The position numbers and the translations under genes are program-made. Under the pieces are notes generated by a model. The model worked only from the letters and a program-made list of their open reading frames with translations. It ran no database searches and was not told the DNA's origin. A stretch of DNA of 20,000 bases, from the IMG/VR virus record IMGVR_UViG_3300044608_000291; one strand, written 5' to 3'. This document shows, in pieces, positions 2,290-20,000 of the stretch; the first letter of the stretch is position 1, and the number at the start of each line of letters is the position of its first letter. Source of the stretch: an uncultured virus (IMG/VR IMGVR_UViG_3300044608_000291) (lineage: Duplodnaviria > Heunggongvirae > Uroviricota > Caudoviricetes).

Positions 2290-3849
2290 ATGGAAGTCAT
2301 TGATAACACCGCGTTGCGTATCGTTGTACCGACCGGTGATGTACCGTCAATTAAAAATCACATCGAGCGATGTGAAGTTTTGCAAAGTAATACACAGCAC
2401 TCTGAGCTGTTGGTCTACTGGGGTATCAACGAGATGCAACGTCTCGCAAGGCTGTATGCCGACATACCCTCACCAATCGAACGCGACTACAAGTGGCCGG
2501 GGCTCTACAAGCCCTTCAAACATCAGCGCGTCACTGCTGCGTTCCTGTCTATGCGCGATCGTGCTTTCTGCTTCAACGAAGCGGGTACAGGCAAGACCTC
2601 CTCCGTAGTCTGGGCAGCGGATTATCTGATGCAAGAAAAGCAGATTAGACGTGTGCTGATCATCTGCCCGCTGTCGATCATGTACTCCGCATGGCAAGAC
2701 GATATCTTCAAGACGGCAATGCATAGGACTGCGGCCGTAGCGCACGGTGACACGAAGAAGCGTCAGAAAGTTATTAGAGGAGAGTATGAGTTCGTCGTGA
2801 TCAACTACGACGGGGTGGGCACGGTCGAGGACGATATCAAGGCATCAGGGTTTGACCTAATAGTCATCGACGAAGCAAATGCGTATAAGAACACTTCAAC
2901 TAAACGGTGGAAGACCTTGAGTCGCTTGCTTACCCCCTCTACGCGCTTGTGGATGTTGACCGGCACACCAGCGTCACAGTCTCCTGAGGACGCCTTTGGC
3001 CTTGCCAAGCTCATCTGCCCCGGCAACGTACCGAAGTGGAAGACTACGTGGAAAGAGCAAGTGATGTATCAAGTCTCGCGCTTCCGCTGGCTCCCCAAAG
3101 CGAACTCCCGCAAGCTCGTGTACCAAGCTCTACAGCCCGCGATCAGGTTTGAAAAATCACAATGCCTTGATCTACCTAGCGTGACATATCAGACGCGCCA
3201 TGTCGCACTGACTGCGCAGGTTGCGAGGTACTACAAACTGATCAAGGACCAAATGCTCGTCGAGACTGCGGGCGTACAGATCACAGCGGTCAACGCTGCC
3301 GCGAAGGTCAGCAAGCTGTTACAGATTTCAGGCGGCGCAGTGTATGCAGAGGGTAACGACATCGTTGAGTTCGACATCGGCCCAAGGCTCGACACACTGC
3401 TTGAGGTACTGGAAGAGACTGAGCACAAGGTCATCGTCTTTGTACCGTTCCGTCACACGATCGAACTCGTCAGCAAATTTTTAACTAGTAAAGGAGTGAC
3501 CAATGAAATCATAAGCGGAGATGTAACCGCTCGTAATCGAGCAGACATCATCAGTCGATTCCAAAAGCAAACTGACCCACGTGTACTTGTTATTCAACCT
3601 CAGGCGGCTTCGCACGGTGTAACACTGACTGCCGCTGATACCGTTGTCTTCTGGTCCCCCGTAACAAGTGTGGAGACATATCTGCAATGCATAGCGCGGA
3701 TCGATCGTGTCGGTCAACAGAACAAGATGACCGTCGTACACCTGCAAGGGTCTGCGATCGAGAGACAGATGTACACAATGCTACGCAACAAAGTGGATCT
3801 GCATAGTCAGTTAGTCGATTTGTACAAACAGGAGTTAGAGAATGAGTGA
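2290..3849 (+). CDS. SNF2-family (SF2) DNA helicase
   Basis: PFKHQ Q-motif, FNEAGTGKT (I), IICPLS (Ia), VIDEAN (II), LTGTP (III), SHGVTLTAAD (V), QCIARIDRVGQ (VI); AAAGGA SD. Confidence 0.93.
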   Translation: MEVIDNTALRIVVPTGDVPSIKNHIERCEVLQSNTQHSELLVYWGINEMQRLARLYADIPSPIERDYKWPGLYKPFKHQRVTAAFLSMRDRAFCFNEAGTGKTSSVVWAADYLMQEKQIRRVLIICPLSIMYSAWQDDIFKTAMHRTAAVAHGDTKKRQKVIRGEYEFVVINYDGVGTVEDDIKASGFDLIVIDEANAYKNTSTKRWKTLSRLLTPSTRLWMLTGTPASQSPEDAFGLAKLICPGNVPKWKTTWKEQVMYQVSRFRWLPKANSRKLVYQALQPAIRFEKSQCLDLPSVTYQTRHVALTAQVARYYKLIKDQMLVETAGVQITAVNAAAKVSKLLQISGGAVYAEGNDIVEFDIGPRLDTLLEVLEETEHKVIVFVPFRHTIELVSKFLTSKGVTNEIISGDVTARNRADIISRFQKQTDPRVLVIQPQAASHGVTLTAADTVVFWSPVTSVETYLQCIARIDRVGQQNKMTVVHLQGSAIERQMYTMLRNKVDLHSQLVDLYKQELENE

Positions 3850-4273
3850 GACCGCTGAAGTAAGCATGGAAAGTGATCTTGGCTTTGAGGATCTGGTCAA
3901 GGCATACATGAACATCCGCGAGGCACGTCAGCAACTGAAAGAGAAGTACGAGCTTGATGACGCCGCGCTGTCGAACGATATGAACACTATTGAGGGACTG
4001 CTGCTCAACAAGTGTAACGAGATCAACGCAAGTAGCATCCGCACAGGTTATGGCACGGTCGTGCGCAAGTTGAACGAGAGGTTCTACTGCAACGATTGGC
4101 CGAACTTCAGAAACTTTGTTCTTGAACACGGCGCGATTGAATTGCTGGAGCGTCGCATTCACCAAAGTAACTTCAAGGAATTCATGGAAGGTCGGCTAGA
4201 GAAAGACGGTCTGCCTCCCGGAGTAAACGTCATGCGTGAGTATGGCGTAGTTGTTCGTAAACCCACCAAGTAA
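3842..4273 (+). CDS. Conserved phage replication-module protein, coiled-coil N-terminus, function unknown
   Basis: 143-aa ORF overlapping the helicase stop, GGAG upstream; LVKAYMNIRE...SIRTGYGTV...DWPNF...LLERRI...PPGV pattern familiar from phage replication modules. Confidence 0.8.
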   Translation: MSETAEVSMESDLGFEDLVKAYMNIREARQQLKEKYELDDAALSNDMNTIEGLLLNKCNEINASSIRTGYGTVVRKLNERFYCNDWPNFRNFVLEHGAIELLERRIHQSNFKEFMEGRLEKDGLPPGVNVMREYGVVVRKPTK

Positions 4274-8395: not shown

Positions 8396-8573
8396 GTGGA
8401 TATTCCCGTTTCAAGGCATGGCAGTCGGGGATAGTTTCTTTATCCCCACTGCACGGGTCGCAGAGATGATGTACGCGATTGAGTCGGGGGCCAAGCGGGC
8501 GCAAGTCCGTGTTAAGGCTTACCCGACTATCAAGGATGAATGCTTAGGCGTACGTGTGTGGCGAGTGCGCTAG
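8367..8573 (+). CDS. Small conserved phage protein (FPF..M.VGDSFFIP...VRVWR type), possibly DNA-binding
   Basis: 68 aa, GAGGAG SD upstream; motif recurrent in phage genomes. Confidence 0.8.
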   Translation: MDPQQMLEPEWIFPFQGMAVGDSFFIPTARVAEMMYAIESGAKRAQVRVKAYPTIKDECLGVRVWRVR

Positions 8574-11500
8574 TCTTCCAGCCCGTATGCTTTCAGTGAT
8601 TGAACAATCTCATTCTTGATCAGATTTTGTTCAAACATATTAATCTTGAGCAGGGCTTGACGATCGGCGGGCGAATAGGCAGTAGTCCGCCGAATCTCAT
8701 TAGCTTCTTGGCGCAGAGCGCGTAGCCGTCCGTTCACGTTCTTGTTGTATGACTCTACAATCGCCTCATCGAAAGGATGCTTGGATATGTAGTCGTCATA
8801 CTTGGGCGGATTCGTAGCAAACATCTTCAAGCGCCGCTCTATGTCGGCAACTTTCTGCTCAGCCTTTGCGAACTCACGTGCATCAACATTCCCGCGTGTG
8901 CCGAAGAAAGACCCAAGCAACGGAATGTCGTTCTTGGGGTTGAACGCTTTCTCGCCAGTGGAAAGCTGCGATATCCCGTATGGCATCTCAAATAGCAGTT
9001 TAGCAAAACCATCAAGATAGCTATTAGCTAGGAAATACATTGTGTTGGGGCTGATGTCGATGCCCCCATCGCTCTCGTCCGCCAAGAACCGCGCGGCATC
9101 CCGATAGATCCCCGGAATTTTGTCCCCGGCGGTATACGCATCACCAAAACGACGGTTTCGGTCGTTGTAAATATCCTGCCCTAGACCATTCTTGTTCATC
9201 GCAAACTCAATCAGCGGACGTGCAAAGCTAGGCGTAATCGAGTCAATAGCGAACTGAAGCGGCATCTCTGTAGCAGGCATCCGCGAGATCGGCAATGGGA
9301 TGAATGAGTCAAACGCGATCTGCGTGAATACATTAGCTAGCGCATCACTAACCTTTGCTTCACCGAATGTCGCTGAAGCTAGCTGTGCCCCGGCTGAAGC
9401 AAACGCGCCAAGGCCAAAGCCCCACGGGATCTGGATGATCAAGGGTTCGTCAAGATTCAATCCGAGCGAGTCTGTTACTGCCTTCGGGATGTGGAACCGT
9501 GCGTACCGAGTCCACTGCTGCATGTTGTCGTAGGCGACAGTATTGCGACCGAGGTCATCGTCATCCGACATCATGAGTGCCATCATGTAGACCATGACTC
9601 CGGACATGAGTAGTCCAGTCGTGGCGACTCGGGCATTCTTTTGCCGCTCTCCGTAATTCTTCCGCCATTTAGCAAGAGCGGCCGGGTCAGTTTGAATTGA
9701 TGTCGGAAGAGATTTCTCTACGCTTTTGATATCTCTAAACGCAGGCGCTACCGCTTCAATCGCGCGGACCGCACCAGTTGCAGCGGGACGGAAGAACATG
9801 AAGAGAGACCCGAGGATCTTGCCCCACTGTCCGACTTGTTCAAAGTTTGCAAGGTTCTTCACGTAAGCAACCGCTTTAGCTGCGGCCTCATCACGTGACA
9901 TGCCTTGCTTAATATAACGGTCTCGAACAGAAGCAAAAGCTGCGGAACGACTGGCGATCTCAAACATGTCGTTCCAGATATCAATAAACTTGTTGATATC
10001 TTCGACCTTACGCACAACGCCGTTTCGACCAATGCTCTTGTAGAGTTCTTGAAACTGAGAACGCAGGCTCATGCCTGCGAGATATGACACCATACCCCCA
10101 GCGCGGATGTACTCCACCATATCGCGGATGTACGGATCTTTCTGCGCCATCGAGTTGAGAGCGAGTTCAGCCTGTGCGCCACCTTTACCGTATGTGGCTG
10201 CAACCATCATGGCTTTATACAAACCATTGTTGAACACGACTCTATTTGAAAGAGTGCGCAAGAAGTCTAAGCCCGCCTTCGGCCCCATCTCTGCGCCAAG
10301 CGTAAACGCATTCGTGAACGCATCAGTCACGAAGTTCTTCGGCGCGAATTGATAGTTGTAGCGAGTATGGGTCTTACCGATAAAGCTCGTGATTCCATTT
10401 GCCGCCGTGATGATGCCTTGCACCAACGGGTCAGATTGTTGGAAAGTTTTACGGATCGATTCAAGATAATTCTTGTCCGCGATCTTCAATACGTAGACCG
10501 TGCCGTCTCTGTCATAGTGGAAGATGTAGTCTGCATTCTTGCTGTACTTCTCTAAGTCACCACTCTCTCGTTCAGCAAACGGGATGACCTTATACACAGA
10601 TCCGCCCAATAGATTCTGGCCGTCTGGGTTTTTCTTCGGGTTCGCATCCAGAGAATTTTTAATCGCAAGGGTCACATCTTTACGCCCTGCGCGAACGGAA
10701 GCCCGGACTGCATCCGAGAGAGCCTGCAAGATCGGGTTGTCAGAAACGGTAGCACGCCCTTCCATCGCGAAGGTCGAATCCTGCAACTCCGCGCCCATCT
10801 TGCGGCTATTGGGGTCAAGCATTTCATCAGCTTCGGTCGCACCAGCGACCTTTTTACGCTCTTTCCCCTTTAACGGGACATAGTGCTTGTAGCCGTAGAA
10901 ATTGACATGGTTCGAAACCGGGTCTGACCAGTAGTTTGATTCTTTATCCAGCTTAGCTGAAACGTCGGTTACTTTTTTCAGAGCTTTTAAGATGTCATCG
11001 ATTTCTTTTAGATTGACATTACGTTTGTATTCATCCGTGATCTGATCTACCGACGCTTTGTTCATAGCCGTGACTTGATAGACATCGGCATCATCTTTAT
11101 TAACCGGATAGAAGTTTGTATCGACTCCCGCAACGGTGCCATCTTTCTTGACGACTTGCAGCGGACTCTGCCCAAACTTATCTACGTATGCAGTCGTCTC
11201 ATAATTAACCGGCATACCATCAGCGTCGATATTTTTGAATACAAGTTTGTTGAGCCGCTTGCGTAAGGCTTCAGCTTCAGCCTTAGTGAGTTTGTCCTCT
11301 TTCAGAGACTTAAAGATTGCATCGCGCCGCGCATTCGCTTGATCAGTAAGTGGGACAAGCCGCAAGTATTTAATCATCCGACGCTCAGGTTCATGCAAAG
11401 CCTCAGTGATCAAGTGCAGTTCAGCGAGCACATCATCAATTTTCTTACCGGCCTTCTTCGCGTAGACATCAATCGCTTGCTCAAGTTCACGATAGACCGG

Positions 11501-14500
11501 TGCAACCTCGCGCAAATAATAGTCTTTGGCTTTACCCGTCGCGGTCGTAATCGCACTATAAATAGCCGTGGTTTTTGGCCCGCTATACGTCAGCTTCCCT
11601 GCCATCGCAAGGGCATCTTCCCAAAGCTTGATGAAGTAGCGATCGTTCTGAAGATTACGTGCAACCCGCTGCATCCCCGGCACACTGAGCAAAGTCTTCC
11701 GCCAGTCATTCACTGTACGTGGACGCTCTTTGTTGTTCAGTTGGTAGTCATCTGGGATCTTATTCAAACTAAGGACGGCTGCGGGCGCAGCAGTTGTCTT
11801 CTTAGCGGCAAGCGGTTCAACCTCAACAAGAGCAGGGGCAGTAATGATATTGCGGAAGATTTCAGCGGTCTCGATCAGCGCGTTACCTTCAAAGCCGGGG
11901 AGTGTGGCTAAGAATGCTTTGCCTTGTTTCGGTACATAACGCTTACCTTTTGGTTTCTCTACCTCGTCAACAACCGCATTATCTTCAGGCGTGACTAACT
12001 CTTCGACCGTATACAAATCGCGCTTCTGCTCCGGCTTCAATCGAGAATTAAGATCGCTAGCAAAAGCCTTGAAAAATTCGGGCCGCAATTCCATCGCAGT
12101 AGCACCGGGGCGCAGAAGATCAAACATCTTCATGAACATCTTCGTAAATTGATGGAAGAGGTTCGCGGCTTTCTTGGTGTACTTTGCAAGTGGACGTGAC
12201 TGGATGTTAGCTAACTCAGTTTGAAACCGAGTGTCGGTCATTGCGTAGCTGACAAACTCATACAGACTTTCAAACGCGGGCTTGAATCGTCCGTTTAACT
12301 TCGGTTTTGCAGCGTCAAAAATCTTCTGTAAGTGCTGCATTGCCTCGCGCTGCGCGTCAGTCAGCGCGGAGGGATTGGTCAGATACGTGTAAATCGTCTG
12401 AACAGTTACTGCATGAACAATCTCATGCAGGACCGTAGTCTCATCCATCCCGTCTTTAGACAGGTAAATCGTATTAGTCTTGGGATCATACTCAGCAAGT
12501 TTGCCAGCCGCCTTCAGCCGTGCGTCAACATCCGCGCCTGTCTTAAATTGAGGCGGGTTCTTCATCGCAAAAGCGCGAATCGAACTGGCGATGTGCGACG
12601 TAAGAGCGGCAGAGATCTGTTGGCGAAGAGCAAGGATGTCGGCAAAGTCGCTCGTTGCTCCGGTACCTTTCAACTCGTCTTTGCTAGGCTGATATATGCG
12701 TAGCCCAGTTGCTGTCTTGGCAATTGAATCTAATACACGACTAAGAATAATTGCAGGCCGAGCTTTGTCTGCTGATTCTAGGTCTTGTTGCAGAGTCTCT
12801 TTAAGGCTAGCGCCTTTACCCTTTTCTTGTTCGCTCTTGCGTGTTTCTTCAGCCGCGCGTTCATCAGCGCGGCGTTTAGTTTCAGCCGCTTGATCTTGTT
12901 CCCGTGTAGTTTCAATCACCTGCTGTCGCTTAGCACCGCGCACACCGGGGACATACTCGCCCGTCTTGACTAGTGCGTCGGCAATTTTATCAACCGCATT
13001 CGTTACGTCCTGTACAGTCGGTCGGAAGACATCAAAATCTTTGCCCGCCGAGACTTCATTGACTGGCACCCCAAGTCGCGCAGCAACATCCGCGTTTACC
13101 GAATCAGTAAATGTTTTTTGAAGCTCAGGCGATAGCTGCCCCCAAGCTGGCAGATCAAAATCCACTCGATCAGATTGTTCAGCGCGAAACAAATCGTAGT
13201 TAACAGCCGACCGCTGCTCAGGAACCGACTGTTTCTTAGACCGTAAATCTTCTAACTCAGCAATTGCAGTCTGATGTTCGTCATACGTGTTGCGACGAAT
13301 GTTGTTCAGATAGAAATCACGCTCAGCAAGTGTCAACTCGCCCCATGACGGGAGCGGTTTCTTTGCTTCACCGAATTCTTCTCGGGCTTCCTCGTACAGA
13401 TCAATTACCGGCTGAGGCGTAGCGCCGCGCTCAAGATCAAGTTGACCTTGTTCCTTTGGTACAGGAGGTTGACGGACTTCAGTCTCGGCAGTAACTGTCT
13501 CAACCGGTTTTGGTTTGCGCCCGCGACGCGGGAACATTTCAATCTGTTCACCAAGTGGCGCAGGTAGATCCGCAACAATTGCAGTTGGGGGAGTCAGCTC
13601 GACTTTTGGCGCTGCTGTTCCTTGAGCAGCCGCTTCTGTTCTTGCTTCTTCTGTTTGGACGGCTTGGGGGGCTTCAGTGACACTGGGGGCTCCTTGAGGT
13701 GGGGTAGCAGGAGTTAAAAGTGTGCGCGAGCCATTTGCTCGCATCGGGGAAACCAAACCAGCTTGTTCCATCTGTTCAAGCAATCGTGCGGCGTGGTTAT
13801 ATCCGATCCGGAGTTGCCGTTGAAGCAATGAAATTGAAGGCCGCCCCGTCTTCGTGACAACATCAACTGCCTGATCATAAAATTGCTCAGACGTAGCCGC
13901 AGGAGGAGTCGTAGCCGCAGGAGGAGTCGTAGCCGCAGGAGGAGTCGTAGCCGCAGGAGGAGTCGTAGCCGCAGGAGGCGCGGGGGGTGCAGGTGTAGTA
14001 ACAGCAGGCGCAGGAGGAGCGGGCGGAGGACCGAGATCCTCGGATAACAAACCGCTAACCTTTGCTTGACGTTCCGCTTCGGCTTTCTGTTCTTCTGGGG
14101 TTAACGCAGTCTGTGTCTGTGTTTGTGCAGCCGCTTCGGCTTCCGCCTTGGCTTGGAGTTCAGCGCCGCGCTTAGCTTCCTCTTCCTGACGAGCTGCCAT
14201 ACGGGTACGGGCACCACCAATACCCCCCGGACCAACAGACATGCCGAATGCAGCCGCGACTGTATCAATGTATTCTTTTAACGCCTCAGCATCTTGTAGA
14301 GAAAGCTTAGCGCCGTAGCGTTCAGCAGCAGTCTGGATCAACTCGACCGGCGTTTCTTTCGCGCCGGTAACAAGAATGCCTTTGGTGATGTCCGTGGCAA
14401 GGTTGCCAGTAGACTTGGGATTTAACTTAAACGCACCAAGCGCGATCTTATCGCCGATGAATTCCGCAACTGTTGAAACAAGACCCGCAGGAAGGACACG

Positions 14501-15268
14501 CTCAAGTTCAATGTCTTCTGGGCGTCCTGTTTCTTCAATAGCCCGACCCGTGACCCCACCAAAGCCTTGCACACCTGCTTGTGCGCCAAGACCAATTGTG
14601 GACCCGGTGCGCTTAGCTGCTTGTGTCAATACTTGCTTGGCTTCGCGCTCAACAAATTCTTTAGCAGCTTGTTCGCCGCTTTCTGCCGCAATCTTCTGCG
14701 CGGCTTCCATCACGCCTTTCTTGATGAGCGTCTTGCCCACCAGACCAGCAGCGGCACCGGGGATAGCCCCCACACCCCCGCCACCGATACCCCCCGCAGT
14801 AGCGCCCCCGGCCATAAACACAAGAGATTCAAGAACACTACCGAGACCCGCGCCCACCTGATACGGTAGCCAGTCGGTCAAGACAGTAGTGATTCCCTTA
14901 TCCCACGCATTTGTGAACGAGTCAGACTCGCGGACGGTTTGACGGGCTTCCCCCGCCTTCATAGTCTGGACACCGGCCTGCATCATCTCCGGACTACCAG
15001 CAACTTTGCCCGTCAATGCTTTTACCGCGCCATATGCTTCCTGCAATTGGCCGGGGATATTAGCGACCCCACGGAACAGATCACTGGACTTGTCTTCATC
15101 TGACAACCGACGTGGGCCGGGGGGAGGTGGCGTGTATTTCTGATAAGACGGCGCAGAGCTTTCAAATTGACCACGAAGATATGTCAGCCCCTCAAGTGAT
15201 ACCCCGTCTAAGTTGCCCTCACGTAGCGCGAGAAGATCAGGTAGAGAAAGCCGATCATAATCAATCAC
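8570..15268 (-). CDS. Large polyvalent virion/ejection protein (Gly-rich hydrophobic N-region, FtsK gamma domain, zincin HExxH peptidase-like domain, C-terminal LPD38-like region)
   Basis: 2232-aa ORF with GTG start and AAGGA SD; SISLLQRQLRIGYNHAARLLEQME (FtsK gamma); AEYDPKTNTIYL...TVLHEIVH...YEFVSYA; IQIPWGFG...PSFARPLIEFAMNKNGLGQDIY...DISPNTMYFLANSYLDG (LPD38-like). Confidence 0.9.
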   Translation of the reverse strand: MIDYDRLSLPDLLALREGNLDGVSLEGLTYLRGQFESSAPSYQKYTPPPPGPRRLSDEDKSSDLFRGVANIPGQLQEAYGAVKALTGKVAGSPEMMQAGVQTMKAGEARQTVRESDSFTNAWDKGITTVLTDWLPYQVGAGLGSVLESLVFMAGGATAGGIGGGGVGAIPGAAAGLVGKTLIKKGVMEAAQKIAAESGEQAAKEFVEREAKQVLTQAAKRTGSTIGLGAQAGVQGFGGVTGRAIEETGRPEDIELERVLPAGLVSTVAEFIGDKIALGAFKLNPKSTGNLATDITKGILVTGAKETPVELIQTAAERYGAKLSLQDAEALKEYIDTVAAAFGMSVGPGGIGGARTRMAARQEEEAKRGAELQAKAEAEAAAQTQTQTALTPEEQKAEAERQAKVSGLLSEDLGPPPAPPAPAVTTPAPPAPPAATTPPAATTPPAATTPPAATTPPAATSEQFYDQAVDVVTKTGRPSISLLQRQLRIGYNHAARLLEQMEQAGLVSPMRANGSRTLLTPATPPQGAPSVTEAPQAVQTEEARTEAAAQGTAAPKVELTPPTAIVADLPAPLGEQIEMFPRRGRKPKPVETVTAETEVRQPPVPKEQGQLDLERGATPQPVIDLYEEAREEFGEAKKPLPSWGELTLAERDFYLNNIRRNTYDEHQTAIAELEDLRSKKQSVPEQRSAVNYDLFRAEQSDRVDFDLPAWGQLSPELQKTFTDSVNADVAARLGVPVNEVSAGKDFDVFRPTVQDVTNAVDKIADALVKTGEYVPGVRGAKRQQVIETTREQDQAAETKRRADERAAEETRKSEQEKGKGASLKETLQQDLESADKARPAIILSRVLDSIAKTATGLRIYQPSKDELKGTGATSDFADILALRQQISAALTSHIASSIRAFAMKNPPQFKTGADVDARLKAAGKLAEYDPKTNTIYLSKDGMDETTVLHEIVHAVTVQTIYTYLTNPSALTDAQREAMQHLQKIFDAAKPKLNGRFKPAFESLYEFVSYAMTDTRFQTELANIQSRPLAKYTKKAANLFHQFTKMFMKMFDLLRPGATAMELRPEFFKAFASDLNSRLKPEQKRDLYTVEELVTPEDNAVVDEVEKPKGKRYVPKQGKAFLATLPGFEGNALIETAEIFRNIITAPALVEVEPLAAKKTTAAPAAVLSLNKIPDDYQLNNKERPRTVNDWRKTLLSVPGMQRVARNLQNDRYFIKLWEDALAMAGKLTYSGPKTTAIYSAITTATGKAKDYYLREVAPVYRELEQAIDVYAKKAGKKIDDVLAELHLITEALHEPERRMIKYLRLVPLTDQANARRDAIFKSLKEDKLTKAEAEALRKRLNKLVFKNIDADGMPVNYETTAYVDKFGQSPLQVVKKDGTVAGVDTNFYPVNKDDADVYQVTAMNKASVDQITDEYKRNVNLKEIDDILKALKKVTDVSAKLDKESNYWSDPVSNHVNFYGYKHYVPLKGKERKKVAGATEADEMLDPNSRKMGAELQDSTFAMEGRATVSDNPILQALSDAVRASVRAGRKDVTLAIKNSLDANPKKNPDGQNLLGGSVYKVIPFAERESGDLEKYSKNADYIFHYDRDGTVYVLKIADKNYLESIRKTFQQSDPLVQGIITAANGITSFIGKTHTRYNYQFAPKNFVTDAFTNAFTLGAEMGPKAGLDFLRTLSNRVVFNNGLYKAMMVAATYGKGGAQAELALNSMAQKDPYIRDMVEYIRAGGMVSYLAGMSLRSQFQELYKSIGRNGVVRKVEDINKFIDIWNDMFEIASRSAAFASVRDRYIKQGMSRDEAAAKAVAYVKNLANFEQVGQWGKILGSLFMFFRPAATGAVRAIEAVAPAFRDIKSVEKSLPTSIQTDPAALAKWRKNYGERQKNARVATTGLLMSGVMVYMMALMMSDDDDLGRNTVAYDNMQQWTRYARFHIPKAVTDSLGLNLDEPLIIQIPWGFGLGAFASAGAQLASATFGEAKVSDALANVFTQIAFDSFIPLPISRMPATEMPLQFAIDSITPSFARPLIEFAMNKNGLGQDIYNDRNRRFGDAYTAGDKIPGIYRDAARFLADESDGGIDISPNTMYFLANSYLDGFAKLLFEMPYGISQLSTGEKAFNPKNDIPLLGSFFGTRGNVDAREFAKAEQKVADIERRLKMFATNPPKYDDYISKHPFDEAIVESYNKNVNGRLRALRQEANEIRRTTAYSPADRQALLKINMFEQNLIKNEIVQSLKAYGLED
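13712..13888 (-). other. FtsK gamma winged-helix domain within the large protein (approx. aa 461-519)
   Basis: EQFYDQAVDVVTKTGRPSISLLQRQLRIGYNHAARLLEQMEQAGLVSPMRANGSRTLL matches the FtsK C-terminal consensus (YDQAV..V....SIS..QR.LRIGYNRAARL.EQME..G.VS....NG.R..L) along its whole length. Confidence 0.93.
13892..13978. repeat. 18-bp in-frame tandem repeat (~4.8 copies, encodes PPAATT)
   Basis: Unit CGTAGCCGCAGGAGGAGT repeated perfectly, directly abutting the FtsK gamma domain. Confidence 0.97.
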
Positions 15269-15270
15269 GT

Positions 15271-17157
15271 TTATTGTCCTTGACCAGACTTACGAGCAAT
15301 AGCTGCATTGATTGCGTTTAGATCCATACCGCCTGAAGAAGTGCCTAAGTTGATACCGGCGCGTTTAGCATACGCTGTATAGGTCTGCCGCGCGCGACTA
15401 ATTTCATCTTGGAATTGCTTGTCGAGATTCGACAACCTTTGAGCAGCCGTGTTGTACATGGATTCGGCTGTCTTATTATTTGGCTCTTTTTCTAGCATAG
15501 CGCGGGCTCTCGCCAATTGCTGCGCACTTGCCGCGTATTCGCCATTCGGTTTATTTTTAACTTCCGCAATCTGCGTAAATAGTCGGCTAAGATTTTTGTC
15601 TGCTTCAAGGAAGTCACGGTATGCTCTATCTTCCTGACGGCCAGTCTCAGCAAACCTTTGTTTGGCTTGTTCAAGCGCAAAAGTACGATCACGGTCGAGA
15701 GCTTGCGCCATAATGCTGGACTGATCGAGGCGGTTCTTTTCCTCATTATTCAGGAACGACCCAGCAGAACTCAAAGCAGAAGTCCGGGCACGAGTAGTTT
15801 CAGTGCGCCCAGCAGCCCCTGCTTTCTCTGCTGCACCACGTCGGCCAGCCTCAAGCCCACGGGCTTGTTCTTCTAAATCGAAGATGTCACGCATCCCGCG
15901 CTCACGTGCGGACTCTTCGCGTAGCGCGGCGTTCAACCCACTAGCCCCAGCAGCAGTCAATGCGCCGAGTCCACTTGTACGGCCACCGGCACCGATCAAC
16001 GCTTGAATCAATTCACGTCGAGGAGCGTTACGCTCAGATTCAGCTAACGTGCCCCGCCGACGCTCGACTTCAGCGGCCCGTGCTCTTGCTTCTTCCTCTG
16101 CTTTTGGCCCCGCAAGATATCTTTCGGTTTCCTCCCGAATACGCCTTGCTTCTGCGTTTGGATCCATCGAAATATCGGCTTGAGCCTGTTCTCGATATTT
16201 TAGACCCAGCGGATCCGGTGGTCCTGCTCGTTGTGCTGCTTGTTGCTGTAAATATGCAAGACCGCTTTCACGCTGTGTGGGTGCTTCGGGGCGCGGTGCA
16301 GCGGGGCGTGGTGCTTCGGGACGCGGAGCAGATGGGGGAGGCGTCTGATTATCCGTCGGGGGCGCTCCTTCATAGGTCGCTACACCACCGGGAACCGCAG
16401 TCGGATCACCAAGCGTTCTAGTCGCCGCTTCAGCCGCCTCACGCCGACGCACCCTATCATAAGCCGGTGTCATACTTGAACGATCGCCGCCGTATGCTGC
16501 TTCCGGTAGATATGGTATTGGCACACCAAGCGCACGTAATGGGCGTGTAACGCCGGTTTCAAACGCCCCCATAAGCCCGCGCGGTACAAGGGTCGCAATA
16601 TCATACCCAGCAGCGGCAAGTTTACGTAGCGCATTTAACATAGCTTCACGATCGCCACGAGCCTGCGCCGCTTCAACCTCCCGTTTTGCTTCTTCTGTGT
16701 CTCCAGCAGAACCGCCCGCTTGAAAGGCAACAATCCCACCTCCAGCCATCCGCACATTACCTGCGCCGGGAGCAGCAGCGATCCCACTCATCAACGGGCT
16801 TTGCTGACCTTGACCCTGCATAGCCTGCATGATTTGCTTTAGCGCGGCTTGCTGTTGACGTTGATTATTTTGGGCGACACCAGTTGCTTGCTGGGCTACG
16901 CCTTGTGAAGGATTTACTTCACTCTTCGCACCTTCAACGGCTTCTTGCTGAAGCGCTTCGACAACAGTTGGCTGTTGCCCTTGCTGCTGCGCCATATCCG
17001 CGATCATTTGATTTTTCGCGGACGCTTGCATCTCTTTAACTTTGGCGAGCGCAAGTGCGTCAAGGAGATTGTTGGACATGCCCAAGCGTTTCATCAACGC
17101 AGCAGGATTACCTTTAAAGGTTTGAACCCGCGAGTCAACGTCACTATAGATAGACAT
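15271..17157 (-). CDS. Putative internal virion/DNA-ejection protein (628 aa)
   Basis: Ala/Gln/Arg-rich coiled-coil, MAGGGIVAFQAGG motif, Pro-rich linker; immediately upstream of the giant polyvalent gene; AAGG SD. Confidence 0.7.
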   Translation of the reverse strand: MSIYSDVDSRVQTFKGNPAALMKRLGMSNNLLDALALAKVKEMQASAKNQMIADMAQQQGQQPTVVEALQQEAVEGAKSEVNPSQGVAQQATGVAQNNQRQQQAALKQIMQAMQGQGQQSPLMSGIAAAPGAGNVRMAGGGIVAFQAGGSAGDTEEAKREVEAAQARGDREAMLNALRKLAAAGYDIATLVPRGLMGAFETGVTRPLRALGVPIPYLPEAAYGGDRSSMTPAYDRVRRREAAEAATRTLGDPTAVPGGVATYEGAPPTDNQTPPPSAPRPEAPRPAAPRPEAPTQRESGLAYLQQQAAQRAGPPDPLGLKYREQAQADISMDPNAEARRIREETERYLAGPKAEEEARARAAEVERRRGTLAESERNAPRRELIQALIGAGGRTSGLGALTAAGASGLNAALREESARERGMRDIFDLEEQARGLEAGRRGAAEKAGAAGRTETTRARTSALSSAGSFLNNEEKNRLDQSSIMAQALDRDRTFALEQAKQRFAETGRQEDRAYRDFLEADKNLSRLFTQIAEVKNKPNGEYAASAQQLARARAMLEKEPNNKTAESMYNTAAQRLSNLDKQFQDEISRARQTYTAYAKRAGINLGTSSGGMDLNAINAAIARKSGQGQ

Positions 17158-17166
17158 AGCGCTACC

Positions 17167-18024
17167 TTAATTCTGTCTAAAGAGTGTATCCAACAGGCTC
17201 AAGATGCCGCCTGTGCCGCCAAGAATCTCGGACAGAGCACTGGGCGCTTGATAGCCGTAGCTTTGCGCCGCAAGGGGAAGCCCCTGCAAGAGTGATTGCG
17301 TAAACTGCACTTGCTTGTACGGAAAGTCGCGCTGCTCTTTGAACTGTTCATAGTCCGCAGTGATACCTTGCTGTTCGATATCGCGCTGTTGCCCGCCAAA
17401 ATCAGCTTGCTTTTGTAGCGCCGCGAGACCGTACTGCTGCGCAGCTTGATTCGCAGCCATCTGACGTTGCTGCTCAGTATTGAACTGCCCTTGTGCCACG
17501 TCGTAAGCTGACTTATAGCCCTCGCCTAATGTACGTGCGATATTGGCCCCAAGTCCACGCTCAAGTTCACCCTCAAGAATCGCTTGCCGTCCGCCACCAT
17601 AAGCACCGGCTCTAGACATCCGCGAAGCATTCTCCATCCTACGGATATCCGCTTGACGATTCATCTCGTCAATCTGAGGCTGCAATGCCGCCGTCAGATA
17701 CGGGTTCATATATTTACTGGCTGTACCTTGATCAGTAAACGACCCCGGCGTAAACGACTTCATCTGATCGGTAGGAATGATCAGATTACCTAGCCCACTA
17801 AAAGCTTGATTTTGAAGATTCGACGTGCCCGCAGTCAGCGGACCGGTGTATGTCTGATATGGCATGTCCGCGAGCGCTTGCCCGCGACCCAACATCTGCG
17901 TGACATACGGCCCCGCCCAAGTCGAGAGATTAGACTCAGTGCTGGTCTGCCTACCGGCTAAAGCATCCGGGGGGATATTCACCCCACCAACAGTAGCTGT
18001 GTTCGTGTTTGCAACGGATGTCAT
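17167..18024 (-). CDS. Putative DNA-transfer/ejection protein (285 aa)
   Basis: YMNPY, AGAYGGGRQA and Gln-rich helices with a C-terminal hydrophobic Gly segment (ILGGTGGILSLL), typical of podovirus ejection proteins; GAGG SD. Confidence 0.7.
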   Translation of the reverse strand: MTSVANTNTATVGGVNIPPDALAGRQTSTESNLSTWAGPYVTQMLGRGQALADMPYQTYTGPLTAGTSNLQNQAFSGLGNLIIPTDQMKSFTPGSFTDQGTASKYMNPYLTAALQPQIDEMNRQADIRRMENASRMSRAGAYGGGRQAILEGELERGLGANIARTLGEGYKSAYDVAQGQFNTEQQRQMAANQAAQQYGLAALQKQADFGGQQRDIEQQGITADYEQFKEQRDFPYKQVQFTQSLLQGLPLAAQSYGYQAPSALSEILGGTGGILSLLDTLFRQN

Positions 18025-18025
18025 A

Positions 18026-19153
18026 TTAGCCTCGTGCCGGGAGGAATTTATTAGGGTTAATTTGCCGACCCTGTTTGGTTGTACCAGTCCGCGCTTTACG
18101 AATGCGGTCCATCATGCCGTACAACTGCTGTGCTCCGGCTTCTGAATTGCCGTTGCCAAGATGGCTAACAACATCAGCAGGGATTACAAACTCACCGTGG
18201 CTTAAACGAGCTTCTTGTTTGCCGTCGATATTAGCAGGGATCTTGTCCGCCATACCATCTGTGCCACCTGCGAGATAACGGCCACGTGCCATATATGCGA
18301 GACCGCCCTGAGCAAGTCCACCGCCGGGGTTTTGTTCAACAGCAGCCGCAGCCGCAGGTGGGGTAGCAGGAGCAGGTCTAGGAGCGTACGTAATATCAGA
18401 GAAATAACTACGCCCCGCTGAACCCGGCCTGCGATTTGGATCGTTCGGCATTGCTAACTGTTGACGCACAGCAGTGTATTGGGGGATACCGCCTTGATAA
18501 CCAGTTGGACGAGGGGAAGCGCCGCTCCCACCCCCAAGTTGTCGCGTTAAAGCGGCGATACCAAGACCAACAAGAGGATTAACTCTCCCGTCAGTCATTA
18601 AGCCTGCGTCGGTCAAAATTCTTGAAAGGCCGGTCGGCGGCGGTCTTCCCCCAGCTCCACCACCAGCTCCACGTCCAGCCCCACCACCAGCCCCACCACC
18701 AGCCCCACCACCAGCCCCACCACCGGACCCGCCAGCTCCACCACCCGAGCCCCCCGGCATACCACCGGGCGCAGCAGTTGGATCACCGAGACTGGAATCC
18801 TCCGGCGTACCACCGGGCGCAGCAGTTGGATCACCGAGACTGGAATCCTCCGGCGTACCACCGGATGCAGCAGTTGGGTCGCCAAGACCGGCATCACTTT
18901 CCCCGCCCGGAGTATTCGCCTCAGTCCAAGCATCAAGACGCGCAAAATATTCTGCGTCGGACAGGTCATCAGGCAGAGTCATCGCATAAGCGTACAACCC
19001 ACTTGCTTGTTCAGGGGATAGCTCTGAAAAAGTTTCGACAAGATCGGTATAGGCAGGATCTAAATCAACTAACGAAGACGTAAAATCAGGCTCGCTAGAT
19101 CCGATACCAAACGCATCGCTATAACTATCCCAACTCCAATCATCCTCGTCCAT
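18026..19153 (-). CDS. Putative internal virion protein with C-terminal DGMADKIPA...LSHGEFVIPADVV module
   Basis: Acidic N-terminus, 16-aa repeats, Gly-Ala tract, conserved C-terminal motif; GAGGA SD. Confidence 0.75.
   Translation of the reverse strand: MDEDDWSWDSYSDAFGIGSSEPDFTSSLVDLDPAYTDLVETFSELSPEQASGLYAYAMTLPDDLSDAEYFARLDAWTEANTPGGESDAGLGDPTAASGGTPEDSSLGDPTAAPGGTPEDSSLGDPTAAPGGMPGGSGGGAGGSGGGAGGGAGGGAGGGAGRGAGGGAGGRPPPTGLSRILTDAGLMTDGRVNPLVGLGIAALTRQLGGGSGASPRPTGYQGGIPQYTAVRQQLAMPNDPNRRPGSAGRSYFSDITYAPRPAPATPPAAAAAVEQNPGGGLAQGGLAYMARGRYLAGGTDGMADKIPANIDGKQEARLSHGEFVIPADVVSHLGNGNSEAGAQQLYGMMDRIRKARTGTTKQGRQINPNKFLPARG
18651..18745. repeat. 12-bp imperfect tandem repeat (encodes GGGA)
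   Basis: CCAGCCCCACCA unit repeated with variants. Confidence 0.85.
18760..18888. repeat. 48-bp in-frame tandem repeat (2 perfect + 1 partial diverged copy; LGDPTAAPGGTPEDSS)
   Basis: Units at 18760-18807 and 18808-18855 are identical; third copy from 18856 is diverged, mostly synonymously. Confidence 0.95.
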
Positions 19154-20000
19154 AGCTTCCTCGCATCGTTTCTAAGATTGCGTCAAAATCATCGGACGCA
19201 TACGGTGTATAGAGTTCATCAAACGGCGTCGGCTCAATTTGGACAGGCTGCGGCTGTTGTGGCTGTTGCTGTTGTTGCTGCTGTGGACTACGCCCGCCGA
19301 GTAGGGCTAGTAATGGCAAGATATTACTAAAATTAGTGCCACGAGTCGATGATGCAATCCCCGTCCCAGTATCAACCCCTACGCCCGCTCCAGCTCCAGC
19401 GCCAGCTCCAGCCCCAGCGCCAGCTCCAGCCCCAGCTCCAGCTCCAGCCCCAGTTCCAGCTCCAGCATCCATCCCCGTCCCCGTCCCGGTTCCGGGACTG
19501 ACTGGTCTAGTGCGCGGGCGAAGAGCCGGGGGTCTTGCACCACGCGGCGGGGGCGATGGTTTCTCGCCACGCAACAATGCTGCAAAGAATTTCCCCCAGT
19601 CAAATTTACTTGGGTCGGTTTCTTCGTCGGTTAGATCTTCGTCGGTTAGATCTTCGTCGGTTAAATCTTCGTCAAGCAAGTCCTCATCTAGCAGATCCTC
19701 ATCTAGCAGATCCTCATCTAGCAGATCCTCATCTAGCAGATCCTCGTCCAAGAGTTCATCATCAAACAATAACTCTTCTTCCTCGACCGGAATCTCTTCT
19801 TCCTCGACCGGAATCTCTTCTTCCTCGACCGGGATCTCTTCTTCCTCGACCGGGATCTCTTCTTCCTCGACCGGAATCTCTTCTTCCTCGACCGGAATCT
19901 CTTCTTCCTCGACCGGAATCTCTTCTTCCTCGACCGGAATCTCTTCTTCCTCGACCGGAATCTCTTCTTCCTCGACCGGAATCTCTTCTTCCTCGACCGG
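19140..20000 (-). CDS. Highly acidic, repeat-rich disordered protein (5' truncated by window), probably virion-associated
   Basis: Frame stays open from 20000 (PVEEEE-IPVEEEE...) to the stop at 19140; overlaps the next gene by 14 nt. The TTG at 19769 is internal. Confidence 0.8.
   Translation of the reverse strand, partial: PVEEEEIPVEEEEIPVEEEEIPVEEEEIPVEEEEIPVEEEEIPVEEEEIPVEEEEIPVEEEEIPVEEEEIPVEEEELLFDDELLDEDLLDEDLLDEDLLDEDLLDEDLLDEDLTDEDLTDEDLTDEETDPSKFDWGKFFAALLRGEKPSPPPRGARPPALRPRTRPVSPGTGTGTGMDAGAGTGAGAGAGAGAGAGAGAGAGAGAGVGVDTGTGIASSTRGTNFSNILPLLALLGGRSPQQQQQQQPQQPQPVQIEPTPFDELYTPYASDDFDAILETMRGSYGRG
19383..19465. repeat. 6-bp imperfect repeat (Gly-Ala tract)
   Basis: CCAGCT/CCAGCC/CCAGCG units; third-position variation keeps GA. 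Confidence 0.9.
19621..19760. repeat. 15-bp tandem repeats (LLDED x6, LTDED/E x3)
   Basis: TCCTCATCTAGCAGA and TCTTCGTCGGTTAGA unit arrays. Confidence 0.95.
19773..20000. repeat. 21-bp tandem repeat, >=10.8 copies (IPVEEEE), runs off the window
   Basis: Unit CTCTTCTTCCTCGACCGGAAT; copies 3 and 4 end GAT (synonymous Ile ATC vs ATT). Confidence 0.98.

Follow-up and report, generated by a model that had tools for sequence, protein, structure and literature searches.

An FtsK gamma winged helix in the hypervariable slot of a giant LPD38 protein from an uncultured phage

Introduction

The gamma domains of bacterial FtsK, full-length winged helices with solved structures (2J5P and 5DCF; 2J5O and 2VE8/2VE9), are the closest described relatives of the domain analyzed here. 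In FtsK, gamma is located at the C-terminus of a protein that also contains a membrane-anchored N-terminus and an alpha/beta translocase motor. Gamma domains have also been described in phages. In Bacillus phages Sam46 and Sam112, gamma is part of the small terminase; the relevant section of that report calls the role of the phage gamma unknown and notes that KOPS are few in these phages (PMC8190038). In a description of polyvalent proteins by Iyer, Burroughs, Anand, de Souza and Aravind (2017; PMC5512222), the passages on individual domains list the FtsK winged helix-turn-helix (wHTH) as infrequent, predict that it binds dsDNA, and describe LPD38 as phage-type only. The example of the FtsK wHTH given in those passages is a Cupriavidus protein.

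Three further phage proteins are of importance for comparison. The gp47 protein of phi24B has been detected in virions by proteomics, and both a role in ejection and a metallopeptidase domain were proposed for it; the domain description of that preprint names LPD5, LPD1, LPD38 and MuF-C, and FtsK gamma is not mentioned there (bioRxiv 10.64898/2026.04.10.717836). According to its abstract, a study of 80alpha gp44 offers a precedent for a DNA-binding ejection protein. The satellite phage TLCphi encodes XafT (DUF3653), which is unrelated to FtsK in sequence; according to the sections of PMC6744903 devoted to it, XafT binds to XerD and makes it active even when FtsK is absent.

Here, we analyze a stretch of 20,000 nt from an uncultured virus (IMG/VR record IMGVR_UViG_3300044608_000291), in the following called the window. 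It encodes a giant protein that combines a gamma domain with LPD38. The first-pass annotation of the window had regarded this architecture as potentially novel. This view has to be restricted, because the presence of the FtsK wHTH in polyvalent proteins is already in print, whereas its pairing with LPD38 and the exchange of a three-helix module in one variable slot come from the present analysis.

Results

The giant gene (P0001; 8570..15268) encodes 2232 aa on the minus strand, which is also the strand of its two neighbors and of all protein features given below. It begins with a GTG codon 2 nt past the stop codon of the upstream gene (15271..17157, 628 aa), for which a family search gave no match. 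This upstream gene lies between the giant gene and a gene for a 285-aa "DNA ejection protein" (17167..18024; phrog_4287, E 4.3e-10), and the shared strand and order place the giant gene as the last gene of a structural/ejection operon. An independent IMG/VR record of 44 kb, which is 71% complete (G001), contains the same gene order around the ejection protein gene, and its TerL, portal, and head genes are on the strand of the giant gene. Its counterpart of the giant protein is 92% identical overall and has gamma at the identical place; therefore, the architecture is not an assembly artefact. Specifically, a chimera with a host ftsK fragment was considered and excluded, as the domain is in frame, is embedded in linkers, and is present in the independent record. 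A megablast comparison of the whole window with 50,697 phage records yielded no match. When 185,579 species genomes were searched for prophages with a relative of the giant protein, 58 pattern matches turned up, and none was confirmed. The giant protein is probably an ejection or "polyvalent" protein of a podophage-like virus that is packed in the virion and injected together with the DNA; its presence in the virion is inferred.

In its size, in its several domains, and in LPD38, which is polyvalent-protein-associated, the product agrees with the large polyvalent proteins of phages. A Pfam search of all 2232 aa at E <= 0.01 reported only two families, FtsK_gamma and LPD38 (PF18857, E 7.6e-17; residues 1912-2094, 8987..9535). 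The FtsK_SpoIIIE motor family was not reported, in agreement with the first-pass view of a motor-less LPD38 protein in a phage structural/ejection module, and neither was any peptidase family. A conserved N-terminal domain (residues 41-375, 14144..15148) could be aligned in 85-111 of the best 120 homologues. According to hydropathy it contains a Gly-rich hydrophobic segment (residues 138-156, 14801-14857), and in three homologues (P0106, P0005, and P0024) weak Gly-zipper/DUF6861 matches fall in this region. In the central part, an HExxH motif (residues 948-952, 12413..12427) marks a putative zincin-type metallopeptidase site. It is enclosed by a phrog_2206 match (residues 789-1040), and its H, E, and H are invariant in 110 out of 110 aligned homologues.

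The C-terminal part connects the protein to described phages. With tblastn, residues 1460-2062 (9083..10891) found homologues in the giant ORFs of Vibrio phages and of Stx-converting podophages, phi24B among them, at 23-24% identity (E-values from 1e-11 to 4e-16). The phi24B match falls in the CDS at 49148-57571, and in the comparison with gp47 this LPD38-containing region showed 23.6% identity (E 4e-11), a distant similarity that covers only 27% of the query. The most hydrophobic segment of the whole protein (residues 1881-1899, 9572..9628; Kyte-Doolittle mean of 1.73 over 19 residues) is a candidate transmembrane helix.

The gamma domain comprises residues 460-519 (13712..13891). It matches Pfam PF09397 with an E-value of 3e-21 and 75.3 bits, compared with a cut-off of 30.6, and covers profile positions 3-62 of 63; the 59-aa piece at 13712-13888 (residues 461-519), searched alone, gave an E-value of 2.4e-23. 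The winged helix is thus intact from end to end, as the first-pass annotation had stated, and the composition of the flanking regions bears out its description of Pro/Ala/Thr-rich linkers. Linker 1 (residues 376-459, 13892..14143) is rich in Ala, Pro, and Thr (A 23, P 20, T 15 for residues 376-460) and includes a tandem repeat of 18 bp x 4.8 that abuts gamma (13892-13978); because the repeat is perfect, it must be recent. Linker 2 (residues 520-640, 13349..13711) is rich in Pro, Ala, and Glu. It contains the basic stretch RRGRKPKP (13505-13528), which, among 121 proteins checked, occurs only in the window and in G001. The closest solved structures are those of P. aeruginosa FtsK gamma (2J5O, 2VE8/2VE9; E ~3e-18) and E. 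coli FtsK (2J5P, 5DCF), and identities counted on the alignments amounted to 34/62 and 32/61 positions, respectively, i.e. about 52-55%. In contrast to FtsK, gamma is internal in the window protein, it is present in one copy per chain of a phage structural protein, and both the motor and the membrane-anchored N-terminus are missing.

The residues with assigned roles in FtsK were compared individually. The six positions at which gamma contacts XerD in 5DCF (Q1288, R1289, R1292, I1293, G1294, and N1296; Table 1 of PMC5052618) all carry identical residues in the window gamma. Also, R1300, E1303, and E1306, the triple alanine substitution of which renders E. coli FtsK KOPS-blind (PMC2680272), are all retained. 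The residues of the alpha2-loop-alpha3 region are kept as well, and the DNA-contacting surface is intact. However, the XerD-contact and KOPS-blind columns are invariant or nearly invariant in all 24 aligned gammas, whatever the fusion partner (R1300 and E1303 are invariant, E1306 is nearly so), and therefore these residues do not identify a function. Compared with the consensus, the window gamma has lost two basic residues, with R replaced by G at the R1280 position and by H at R1297. A complex prediction with the gamma alignment and residues 108-298 of XERD_ECOLI gave a value of 0.11 (mark 0.32); it was run without controls and counts neither way. The gammas of the window and of G001 are 98% identical, and the respective codons show three synonymous differences and one non-synonymous difference, too few for a selection test.

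The giant-protein family has 821+ homologues, and comparisons were made on the best 120. None of these 120 carries gamma, and this particular gamma is known from two records only, the window and G001. The first-pass expectation that LPD38 proteins do not normally include gamma was therefore correct. The region that holds gamma could be aligned across in only 23-30 of the best 120 homologues, compared with 110-117 elsewhere in the protein. The length of this slot, which could be mapped in 80 homologues, varies from 224 to 579 aa, and its content is variable, too. In 89 of the best 120 homologues, a different module of about 65 aa with three helices is found at residues ~415-600, which is lacking in the window protein. 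Gamma is a lineage-specific swap into a hypervariable slot, where it replaces the usual three-helix module. One homologue (P0008) contains a gamma-like wHTH in the corresponding slot with a sub-threshold score of 22.2 bits. A search for further homologues with residues 452-527 among proteins of 1227-3906 aa gave 55 candidates and none at E <= 0.001, the word index being too coarse for 76 aa.

The three-helix module was modelled with AF2 (pLDDT 82). By visual impression it resembled SAP/HeH, which was not confirmed: none of 22 members had a significant Pfam match to SAP, HeH, or any other family (the best was GP3_package with E 0.0013, below its cut-off), Foldseek found no match at E <= 0.001, and VIA returned Ku70-C, SAP, Rho-N, and LEM at Z 3.7-4.5, which does not rise above the noise of that search.

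The nearest relatives of the window gamma are Burkholderiales FtsK gammas, with 61-74% identity. In the gamma tree, it is placed on a long branch of 0.81 changes per column, and phage gammas occur at no fewer than six separate places among those of Burkholderiales FtsK. Motor-less gammas are common in viral contigs; two patterns together matched at least 384 IMG/VR stretches. Analysis of 41 viral gamma loci revealed RdgC (13), GapR (10), DUF5906 (9), PrimPol/D5_N (1), and giant proteins (2) as partners, while gamma was the sole Pfam family found at six loci; the FtsK motor was present in none of the 41 ORFs. In three further giant polyvalent proteins, gamma either follows an SLT domain or is accompanied by LPD1. 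Counted together, four or more giant viral proteins other than the present one carry gamma. The occurrence of gamma in other phage proteins, which the first-pass annotation had mentioned, is thereby substantiated.

The available phage DNA, i.e. the window and G001, was also scanned for the target sites of FtsK and XerCD, as the first-pass annotation had suggested, and neither scan was positive. KOPS were not enriched: exact matches numbered 0 versus 1.45 expected, and with one mismatch allowed the numbers were 40 versus 40.2. The best dif-like site in the window and G001 had 7-8 mismatches at 22 scored bases, while the best sites of 30 shuffled sequences had 3-8; the scan was scored against an E. 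coli-type core, from which the dif of the host may differ. A tyrosine integrase was not found in the available phage DNA, including G001. Because G001 is only 71% complete, the lack of an integrase and of a dif site says little for or against any reading. Nor did this phage DNA show any sign of an IMEX lifestyle.

Discussion

The best reading of these results, for which we see slightly less than an even chance, is that gamma is a captured tether for double-stranded DNA. The frame of the protein is formed by the glycine-rich N-terminal domain, the invariant HExxH motif, and the C-terminal LPD38 region with its hydrophobic segment, and the hypervariable slot sits on Pro/Ala/Thr linkers, probably flexible, between the N-terminal and the central conserved parts. 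In the lineage of the window and G001, this slot would have taken up gamma from a betaproteobacterial, Burkholderiales-like FtsK. As the duplex-binding module of the slot, gamma would then anchor either the whole protein or a processed fragment to the DNA that travels with it, i.e. the phage genome, both inside the capsid and where the ejection conduit reaches the cytoplasm. Binding would show little or no sequence specificity, given a single gamma per chain and the absence of KOPS from the phage DNA. That gamma binds DNA in this context, and which DNA it binds, is inferred.

A tether would fit the intact DNA-contacting surface, the lack of a motor family, the exchange within the slot, the structural/ejection context, and the lack of KOPS enrichment. 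Several comparisons with other proteins are compatible with a tether, too. Judged from their domain composition, the viral fusions of gamma with RdgC, GapR, and primase-helicases link it to DNA-handling partners, and, by analogy, the dsDNA binding predicted by Iyer et al. for the rare FtsK wHTH and the 80alpha gp44 precedent point in the same direction. The window protein also resembles the polyvalent proteins of Iyer et al. in its giant size, its multidomain make-up, and its LPD domain, and its HExxH motif is metallopeptidase-like. The small terminases of Sam46 and Sam112 and the RdgC, GapR, and primase-helicase fusions are similar to it in that a host-like gamma was captured onto a phage DNA-handling protein. 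However, these partners act in packaging, replication, and recombination in the cytoplasm, whereas the partner in the window is a putative injected, envelope-spanning protein. Other points weigh against a tether. The replaced three-helix module had no significant family or fold match that would predict DNA binding. The KOPS-specific residues, which non-specific binding would not require, have been kept, albeit in a family that conserves them throughout. The repeated capture among Burkholderiales gammas could reflect a matching host partner instead of the availability of donor genes. In addition, the surface of gamma that binds DNA also binds XerD (PMC5052618, section 4), and therefore the sequence cannot separate the two roles. 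If gamma merely tethers DNA, the locus would be a tidy case of module exchange in polyvalent proteins. The family as a whole represents a natural experiment, as one lineage among more than 800 giant ejection-type proteins has swapped its slot module for a host-type gamma.

The first-pass annotation had considered an injected KOPS reader or XerD activator; the residues that suggest it are those conserved, invariantly or nearly so, in all 24 gammas. In the version with XerD, which we regard as unlikely, the motor-less gamma would meet XerCD at the host dif or at a dif-like site of the phage and would activate XerD outside of the septum. Host chromosomes would end up tangled or dimerised, or phage DNA would be integrated or resolved with no integrase of its own; in line with the latter, no tyrosine integrase was found in G001, which is 71% complete. 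The complete set of XerD contacts is consistent with this reading. A peptide of nine residues (1289-1297) is sufficient when fused to XerC, and two of its residues are changed in the window gamma, including R1297, a neutral control site. Isolated gamma activates XerCD-dif, yielding topologically complex products, as summarized in the abstract of Grainge 2011. XafT, a phage-encoded XerD activator, provides a functional model and a phage-borne precedent, but the element of XafT integrates at dif, whereas the dif-like sites of the window and G001 were not better than those of shuffled sequence with the E. coli-type core. Moreover, the XerD contacts are shared with gammas on any fusion partner, none of the best 120 family members needs gamma, and, in the part of PMC6744903 dealing with this point, free gamma is described as an efficient activator of XerD only if translocating FtsK delivers it or if it forms a fusion with a recombinase.

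Improbable to the same degree is the possibility that gamma recognizes KOPS of the host and either aims the protein at host DNA or competes with the loading of FtsK, such that chromosome segregation would be disturbed early in infection. As KOPS are not enriched in the phage DNA, binding with sequence specificity would have to be directed at host DNA, and the retention of R1300, E1303, and E1306 as well as the close relationship to host-type Burkholderiales gammas would be in line with such a target. However, one KOPS is bound by three gammas, and PMC3384302, in its treatment of this binding, reports that monomers bind poorly and that covalent trimers were built, whereas the giant protein has a single gamma. 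The long branch and the loss of two basic residues also argue against a KOPS reader. Furthermore, KOPS-blind E. coli grow normally (PMC2680272), and therefore occlusion alone may cost the host little.

That an injected motor-less gamma switches on XerD at the host dif, or blocks FtsK loading at KOPS, right at the start of infection is, in our view, a little less probable still. Its consequences would nevertheless be considerable. Should gamma act on XerD or KOPS, the chromosome-dimer-resolution machinery would have its first known injected effector. Xer recombination would be uncoupled from septation, leading to knotted or dimerised host chromosomes or to recombination of phage DNA via the host XerCD. 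The target would be a chromosome-segregation checkpoint, and the repeated capture of gamma by unrelated phage proteins would represent a general anti-host strategy.

The least probable reading is that gamma is a passenger or spacer without a function of its own, a piece of host sequence that was captured recently and that a permissive linker tolerates: the variable length and content of the slot, the recent repeat in the adjoining linker, and the restriction of this gamma to two known records would agree with it, but the domain is complete, all family-invariant columns have stayed intact despite the long branch after capture, gamma is 98% identical between the window and G001, compared with 92% for the whole protein (only four changed codons, too few for a test), and gamma has recurred in other giant viral proteins.

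An FtsK gamma domain in a giant phage protein

The single very long ORF of the window (8570..15268, minus strand) encodes a giant protein of 2232 aa, in which Pfam recognized two families. FtsK_gamma was matched over residues 460-519 (profile positions 3-62 of 63; E 3e-21; 75.3 bits vs. a cut-off of 30.6), and LPD38 (PF18857) at residues 1912-2094 (E 7.6e-17). No FtsK/SpoIIIE motor family was detected by Pfam in the 2232 aa. The 59 residues delimited by the first-pass annotation gave, on their own, an FtsK_gamma match with E 2.4e-23. The best solved-structure matches were the isolated P. aeruginosa FtsK gamma domains (2J5O, 2VE8/2VE9; E ~3e-18) and those of E. coli FtsK (2J5P and the XerD-gamma fusion 5DCF). 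Counted from the alignments, 34/62 positions were identical to P. aeruginosa and 32/61 to E. coli. The flanks of the domain are Ala/Pro/Thr-rich, and a perfect tandem repeat (18 bp x 4.8, 13892-13978) lies directly 5' of the gamma-coding DNA. Based on the Pfam matches, the structure matches and the flank composition, the initial observation of an intact FtsK gamma on Ala/Pro/Thr-rich linkers within a motor-less 2232-aa protein was confirmed in every particular.

An HExxH motif is present at residues 948-952, with H, E and H invariant in 110/110 aligned homologues, and hydrophobicity over 19-residue stretches peaks at residues 138-156, which are glycine-rich, and at 1881-1899. Furthermore, a basic stretch, RRGRKPKP (13505-13528; residues 581-588), is located 60 residues past gamma. 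Among 121 family proteins checked, it was limited to the window and its nearest relative, the independent IMG/VR record G001. This stretch resembles an AT-hook-like minor-groove motif.

Conservation of the contact surface

Residues Q1288, R1289, R1292, I1293, G1294 and N1296 of gamma are reported to contact XerD, with R1289 being critical, and the same surface also binds KOPS DNA (Keller et al. 2016, PMC5052618). In that work, a nine-residue peptide (1289-1297) fused to XerC was enough for some activation, and R1297 was a neutral control. R1300A, E1303A and E1306A are described as making FtsK KOPS-blind (Sivanathan et al., PMC2680272). Alignment to E. coli FtsK gamma revealed that six of six XerD-contact residues are identical in the window gamma, and that the equivalents of R1300, E1303 and E1306 are all retained. 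Apart from R1297 to H, the contact stretch differs only by conservative exchanges between hydrophobic residues. When 24 gammas were aligned (the window, G001, 11 more fusions of various types from viruses and 11 FtsK proteins from bacteria), Q1288, R1289, G1294, N1296, R1300 and E1303 were invariant, and R1292, I1293 and E1306 nearly so. At the sequence level, the intact surface shows that the window gamma should be a working family member; it does not tell which of the two activities of the gamma family is used.

A variable slot in the LPD38 giant family

A search of a 5.8-billion-protein collection yielded 821 homologues of the giant protein at E <= 0.001, and the best 120 of these 821 were examined. 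PF18857 was annotated in all 120 and PF09397 in none (precomputed Pfam annotation), in agreement with the earlier statement that gamma is not a standard part of LPD38 proteins. Other Pfam cargo in the same 120 comprised one ParB_N and one DUF6861. Homologue coverage of the giant protein falls from 110-117/120 to 23-30/120 over residues ~441-600, within a hypervariable, linker-flanked slot between the N-terminal and central conserved parts. In the 80/120 homologues with both flanks mappable, slot length was 224-579 aa, vs. 275 aa in the window, and 77 of the 80 slots form one cluster. An iterative HMM search seeded on a shared slot stretch found a ~65-aa module at residues ~415-600 in 89/120 homologues and none in the window protein. 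Because coverage drops at the slot and the module present there in most relatives is missing from the window, gamma, in this lineage only, fills the site of another small module.

The common module was modeled with AlphaFold2 from 22 sequences as three helices (pLDDT 82, confident). It gave no Foldseek match at E <= 0.001 and no significant Pfam family in any of the 22 members, and the rows of a wide VIA search (Ku70-C, several SAP, Rho-N, LEM; Z 3.7-4.5) lay within the VIA noise band. Therefore, a DNA-binding nature of this module is conjecture only.

The slot of one homologue, P0008, contains a degenerate gamma-like winged helix (residues 445-479) adjoined by RTX-like GGxGxD repeats. This stretch was the single, weak phmmer match of the window gamma among the best 120 homologues (E 2.5e-4), and it reached 22.2 bits in Pfam, under the cut-off. 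Another homologue, P0118, has a divergent N-terminal half, in which ParB_N was found at residues 636-701 (29.5 bits). The N-terminal third of the LPD38 giant family is a general cargo region. In P0002, the nearest gamma-less homologue, slot residues ~426-677 hold a ~220-aa stretch in place of gamma or the three-helix module. Nothing was found in it by Pfam; by eye, its glycine-rich loop, conserved lysine and Asp-rich loop are reminiscent of a kinase-like fold.

Gene setting and relation to virion proteins

On its plus strand, the window has a replication module comprising a family-A DNA polymerase fragment, a PD-(D/E)XK exonuclease, an SNF2 helicase and a DUF927 primase/helicase. Between the genes for the SNF2 helicase and the primase/helicase lies a 143-aa 'minor head protein' ORF (3842-4273, plus strand; phrog_13900, E 3e-21; weak Pfam match to Pam3 gp33-like), an odd location for a head protein.

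The giant gene is the final gene of a minus-strand operon that also encodes a 285-aa match to a 'DNA ejection protein' (phrog_4287, E 4.3e-10) and three other proteins without a family match. The two minus-strand genes heading this operon (18026-19153 and 19140-20000), whose proteins matched no family, are full of in-frame tandem repeats, including 21 bp x 10.9 at 19773-20000 (99% matches), 48 bp x 3 at 18754-18895, 12 bp x 6.2 at 18651-18724, 18 bp x 4.7 at 19382-19466 and further arrays. The 21-bp array was also found at the start of G001.

In G001 (44,428 bp, 71% complete), the giant protein is 92% identical to that of the window, has gamma at the corresponding position and contains 7 extra aa inserted after residue 425. 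Genes for the large terminase, the portal and the head share the strand of the giant gene in G001. The divergence between the two giant genes is a mosaic: identity is 97.5% over residues 641-1200, where synonymous changes are few, and 87% over residues 1201-1900, where 221 codons differ only synonymously. This pattern suggests recombination inside the giant gene between related phages.

Distant homology (23-24% identity; E between 1e-11 and 4e-16) links residues 1460-2062 to giant ORFs of Vibrio phages and of Stx-converting podophages. The phi24B match falls in CDS 49148-57571, which appears to be gp47, as no other ORF in the stretch examined is of that size; the gene numbering differs. A preprint (bioRxiv 10.64898/2026.04.10.717836) describes gp47 as a protein of 2811 aa with LPD5, LPD1, LPD38 and MuF-C metallopeptidase domains, abundant in the proteome of phi24B virions and not visible in the cryo-EM map, and its authors propose an encapsidated ejection protein. 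Judging from gene order and distant homology to the phi24B protein, the giant protein of the window would likewise be virion-borne.

Possible roles of the gamma domain

It had been proposed that the phage may inject a KOPS reader or XerD activator that could act on phage DNA or on host KOPS. Exact KOPS (GGGNAGGG) occurred 0 times in the window, vs. 1.45 expected, and 40 times vs. 40.2 expected when one mismatch was allowed, i.e. KOPS was not enriched; the 44-kb G001 record contains two, both on the plus strand. The best dif-like matches did not exceed those in shuffled sequence when scored against an E. coli-type core, from which the host's own dif may differ. No integrase was found among 27 G001 ORFs in PHROGs, and no PF00589 in this incomplete record. 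The functional proposals of the first-pass annotation gained no support from the tests run.

We tentatively favor, at slightly short of an even chance, an encapsidated ejection or polyvalent protein with a captured FtsK gamma as a duplex-DNA tether. The variable slot, on its flexible linkers, would carry a small binding module; in the window lineage this would be a captured FtsK gamma that binds duplex DNA and holds the giant protein, or a cleaved fragment of it, on the DNA travelling with it.

An injected XerD activator is unlikely. Isolated gamma is reported to be able to activate XerCD-dif, with topologically complex products (Grainge 2011); efficient activation is described only when translocation delivers gamma or when gamma is part of a fusion with a recombinase, and the phage factor XafT, unrelated in sequence, activates XerD without FtsK (PMC6744903). 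A similarly low probability applies to a reader or decoy of host KOPS: the KOPS-binding residues are retained, and one KOPS is reported to be bound by three gamma domains, with monomers being poor binders (PMC3384302). Most doubtful is a functionless passenger, to be set beside the intact contact surface; these four readings leave part of the probability unassigned.

Gamma domains in other viral proteins and their origin

The FtsK winged helix has been named as a rare DNA-binding domain of polyvalent proteins (Iyer et al. 2017, PMC5512222). The gamma of the window is a real and tidy finding, but it adds one more case to a type that is already published. Among the papers listed by literature searches, none was seen to describe an LPD38 protein with gamma; the supplement of Iyer et al. 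2017 may tabulate one. A small terminase with an N-terminal FtsK_gamma is described in PMC8190038, where the role of phage gamma genes is given as unknown.

The expectation that gamma occurs in other phage proteins was borne out by an IMG/VR survey with the window gamma as query, which confirmed 41 loci, none with an FtsK motor beside gamma. Gamma was fused to RdgC (13 loci), GapR (10) or DUF5906 (9), stood between PrimPol and D5_N (1), was the sole Pfam family found (6), or was part of a giant with a Strawberry-notch-type helicase (1) or of the LPD38 giant of G001 (1). With a gamma alignment as query, gamma relatives were found in 384/423 matched IMG/VR stretches. The best 80 of these include three more giants, and Pfam was run on these three only: one of at least 4218 aa (SLT, gamma, InPase, Eco57I-type methylase), one of at least 4150 aa (SLT, gamma, methylase, Helicase_C) and one of 3560 aa (gamma, LPD1). 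Gamma thus turns up repeatedly as an add-on, both in phage proteins that handle DNA and in several unrelated giants of the polyvalent type.

A pattern-based scan with one genome per species gave 439 confirmed relatives, of which the best 80 were kept. Their identity to the window gamma was 61-74% by tblastn re-scoring (57-74% by best segment), and their titles named 72 Burkholderiales taxa, 2 'beta proteobacterium' and 6 other or unspecific sources; as the exact-word patterns favor query-like sequences, this bias is a lead and not a census. Gamma ends at most 7 residues from the ORF end in 80/80 of these loci and lies in an open frame of at least 769 codons in 75/80, which are therefore ordinary FtsK genes.

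A gamma tree was built from 117 sequences, leaving out the second gamma of viral locus L011 and five bacterial frames of <700 codons; with ~70 columns, many of its forks are unresolved. The branch leading to the window and G001 gammas is long (0.81) and falls within a six-row set with support of 96/93, whose other members are three betaproteobacterial-type FtsK and one phage RdgC-gamma; the phage label requires at least 6 changes. From this placement and these changes, the window gamma seems to have been taken from a host FtsK in one of several independent events, and the host is probably a betaproteobacterium. Several RdgC, GapR and DUF5906 fusions are placed next to individual Burkholderiales FtsK groups (Paraburkholderia, Massilia, Alcaligenaceae), a pattern suggestive of host-matched capture on repeated occasions. 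L011 (5354-6769) itself encodes a 472-aa protein with a tandem gamma pair, the second divergent, and no other Pfam domain.
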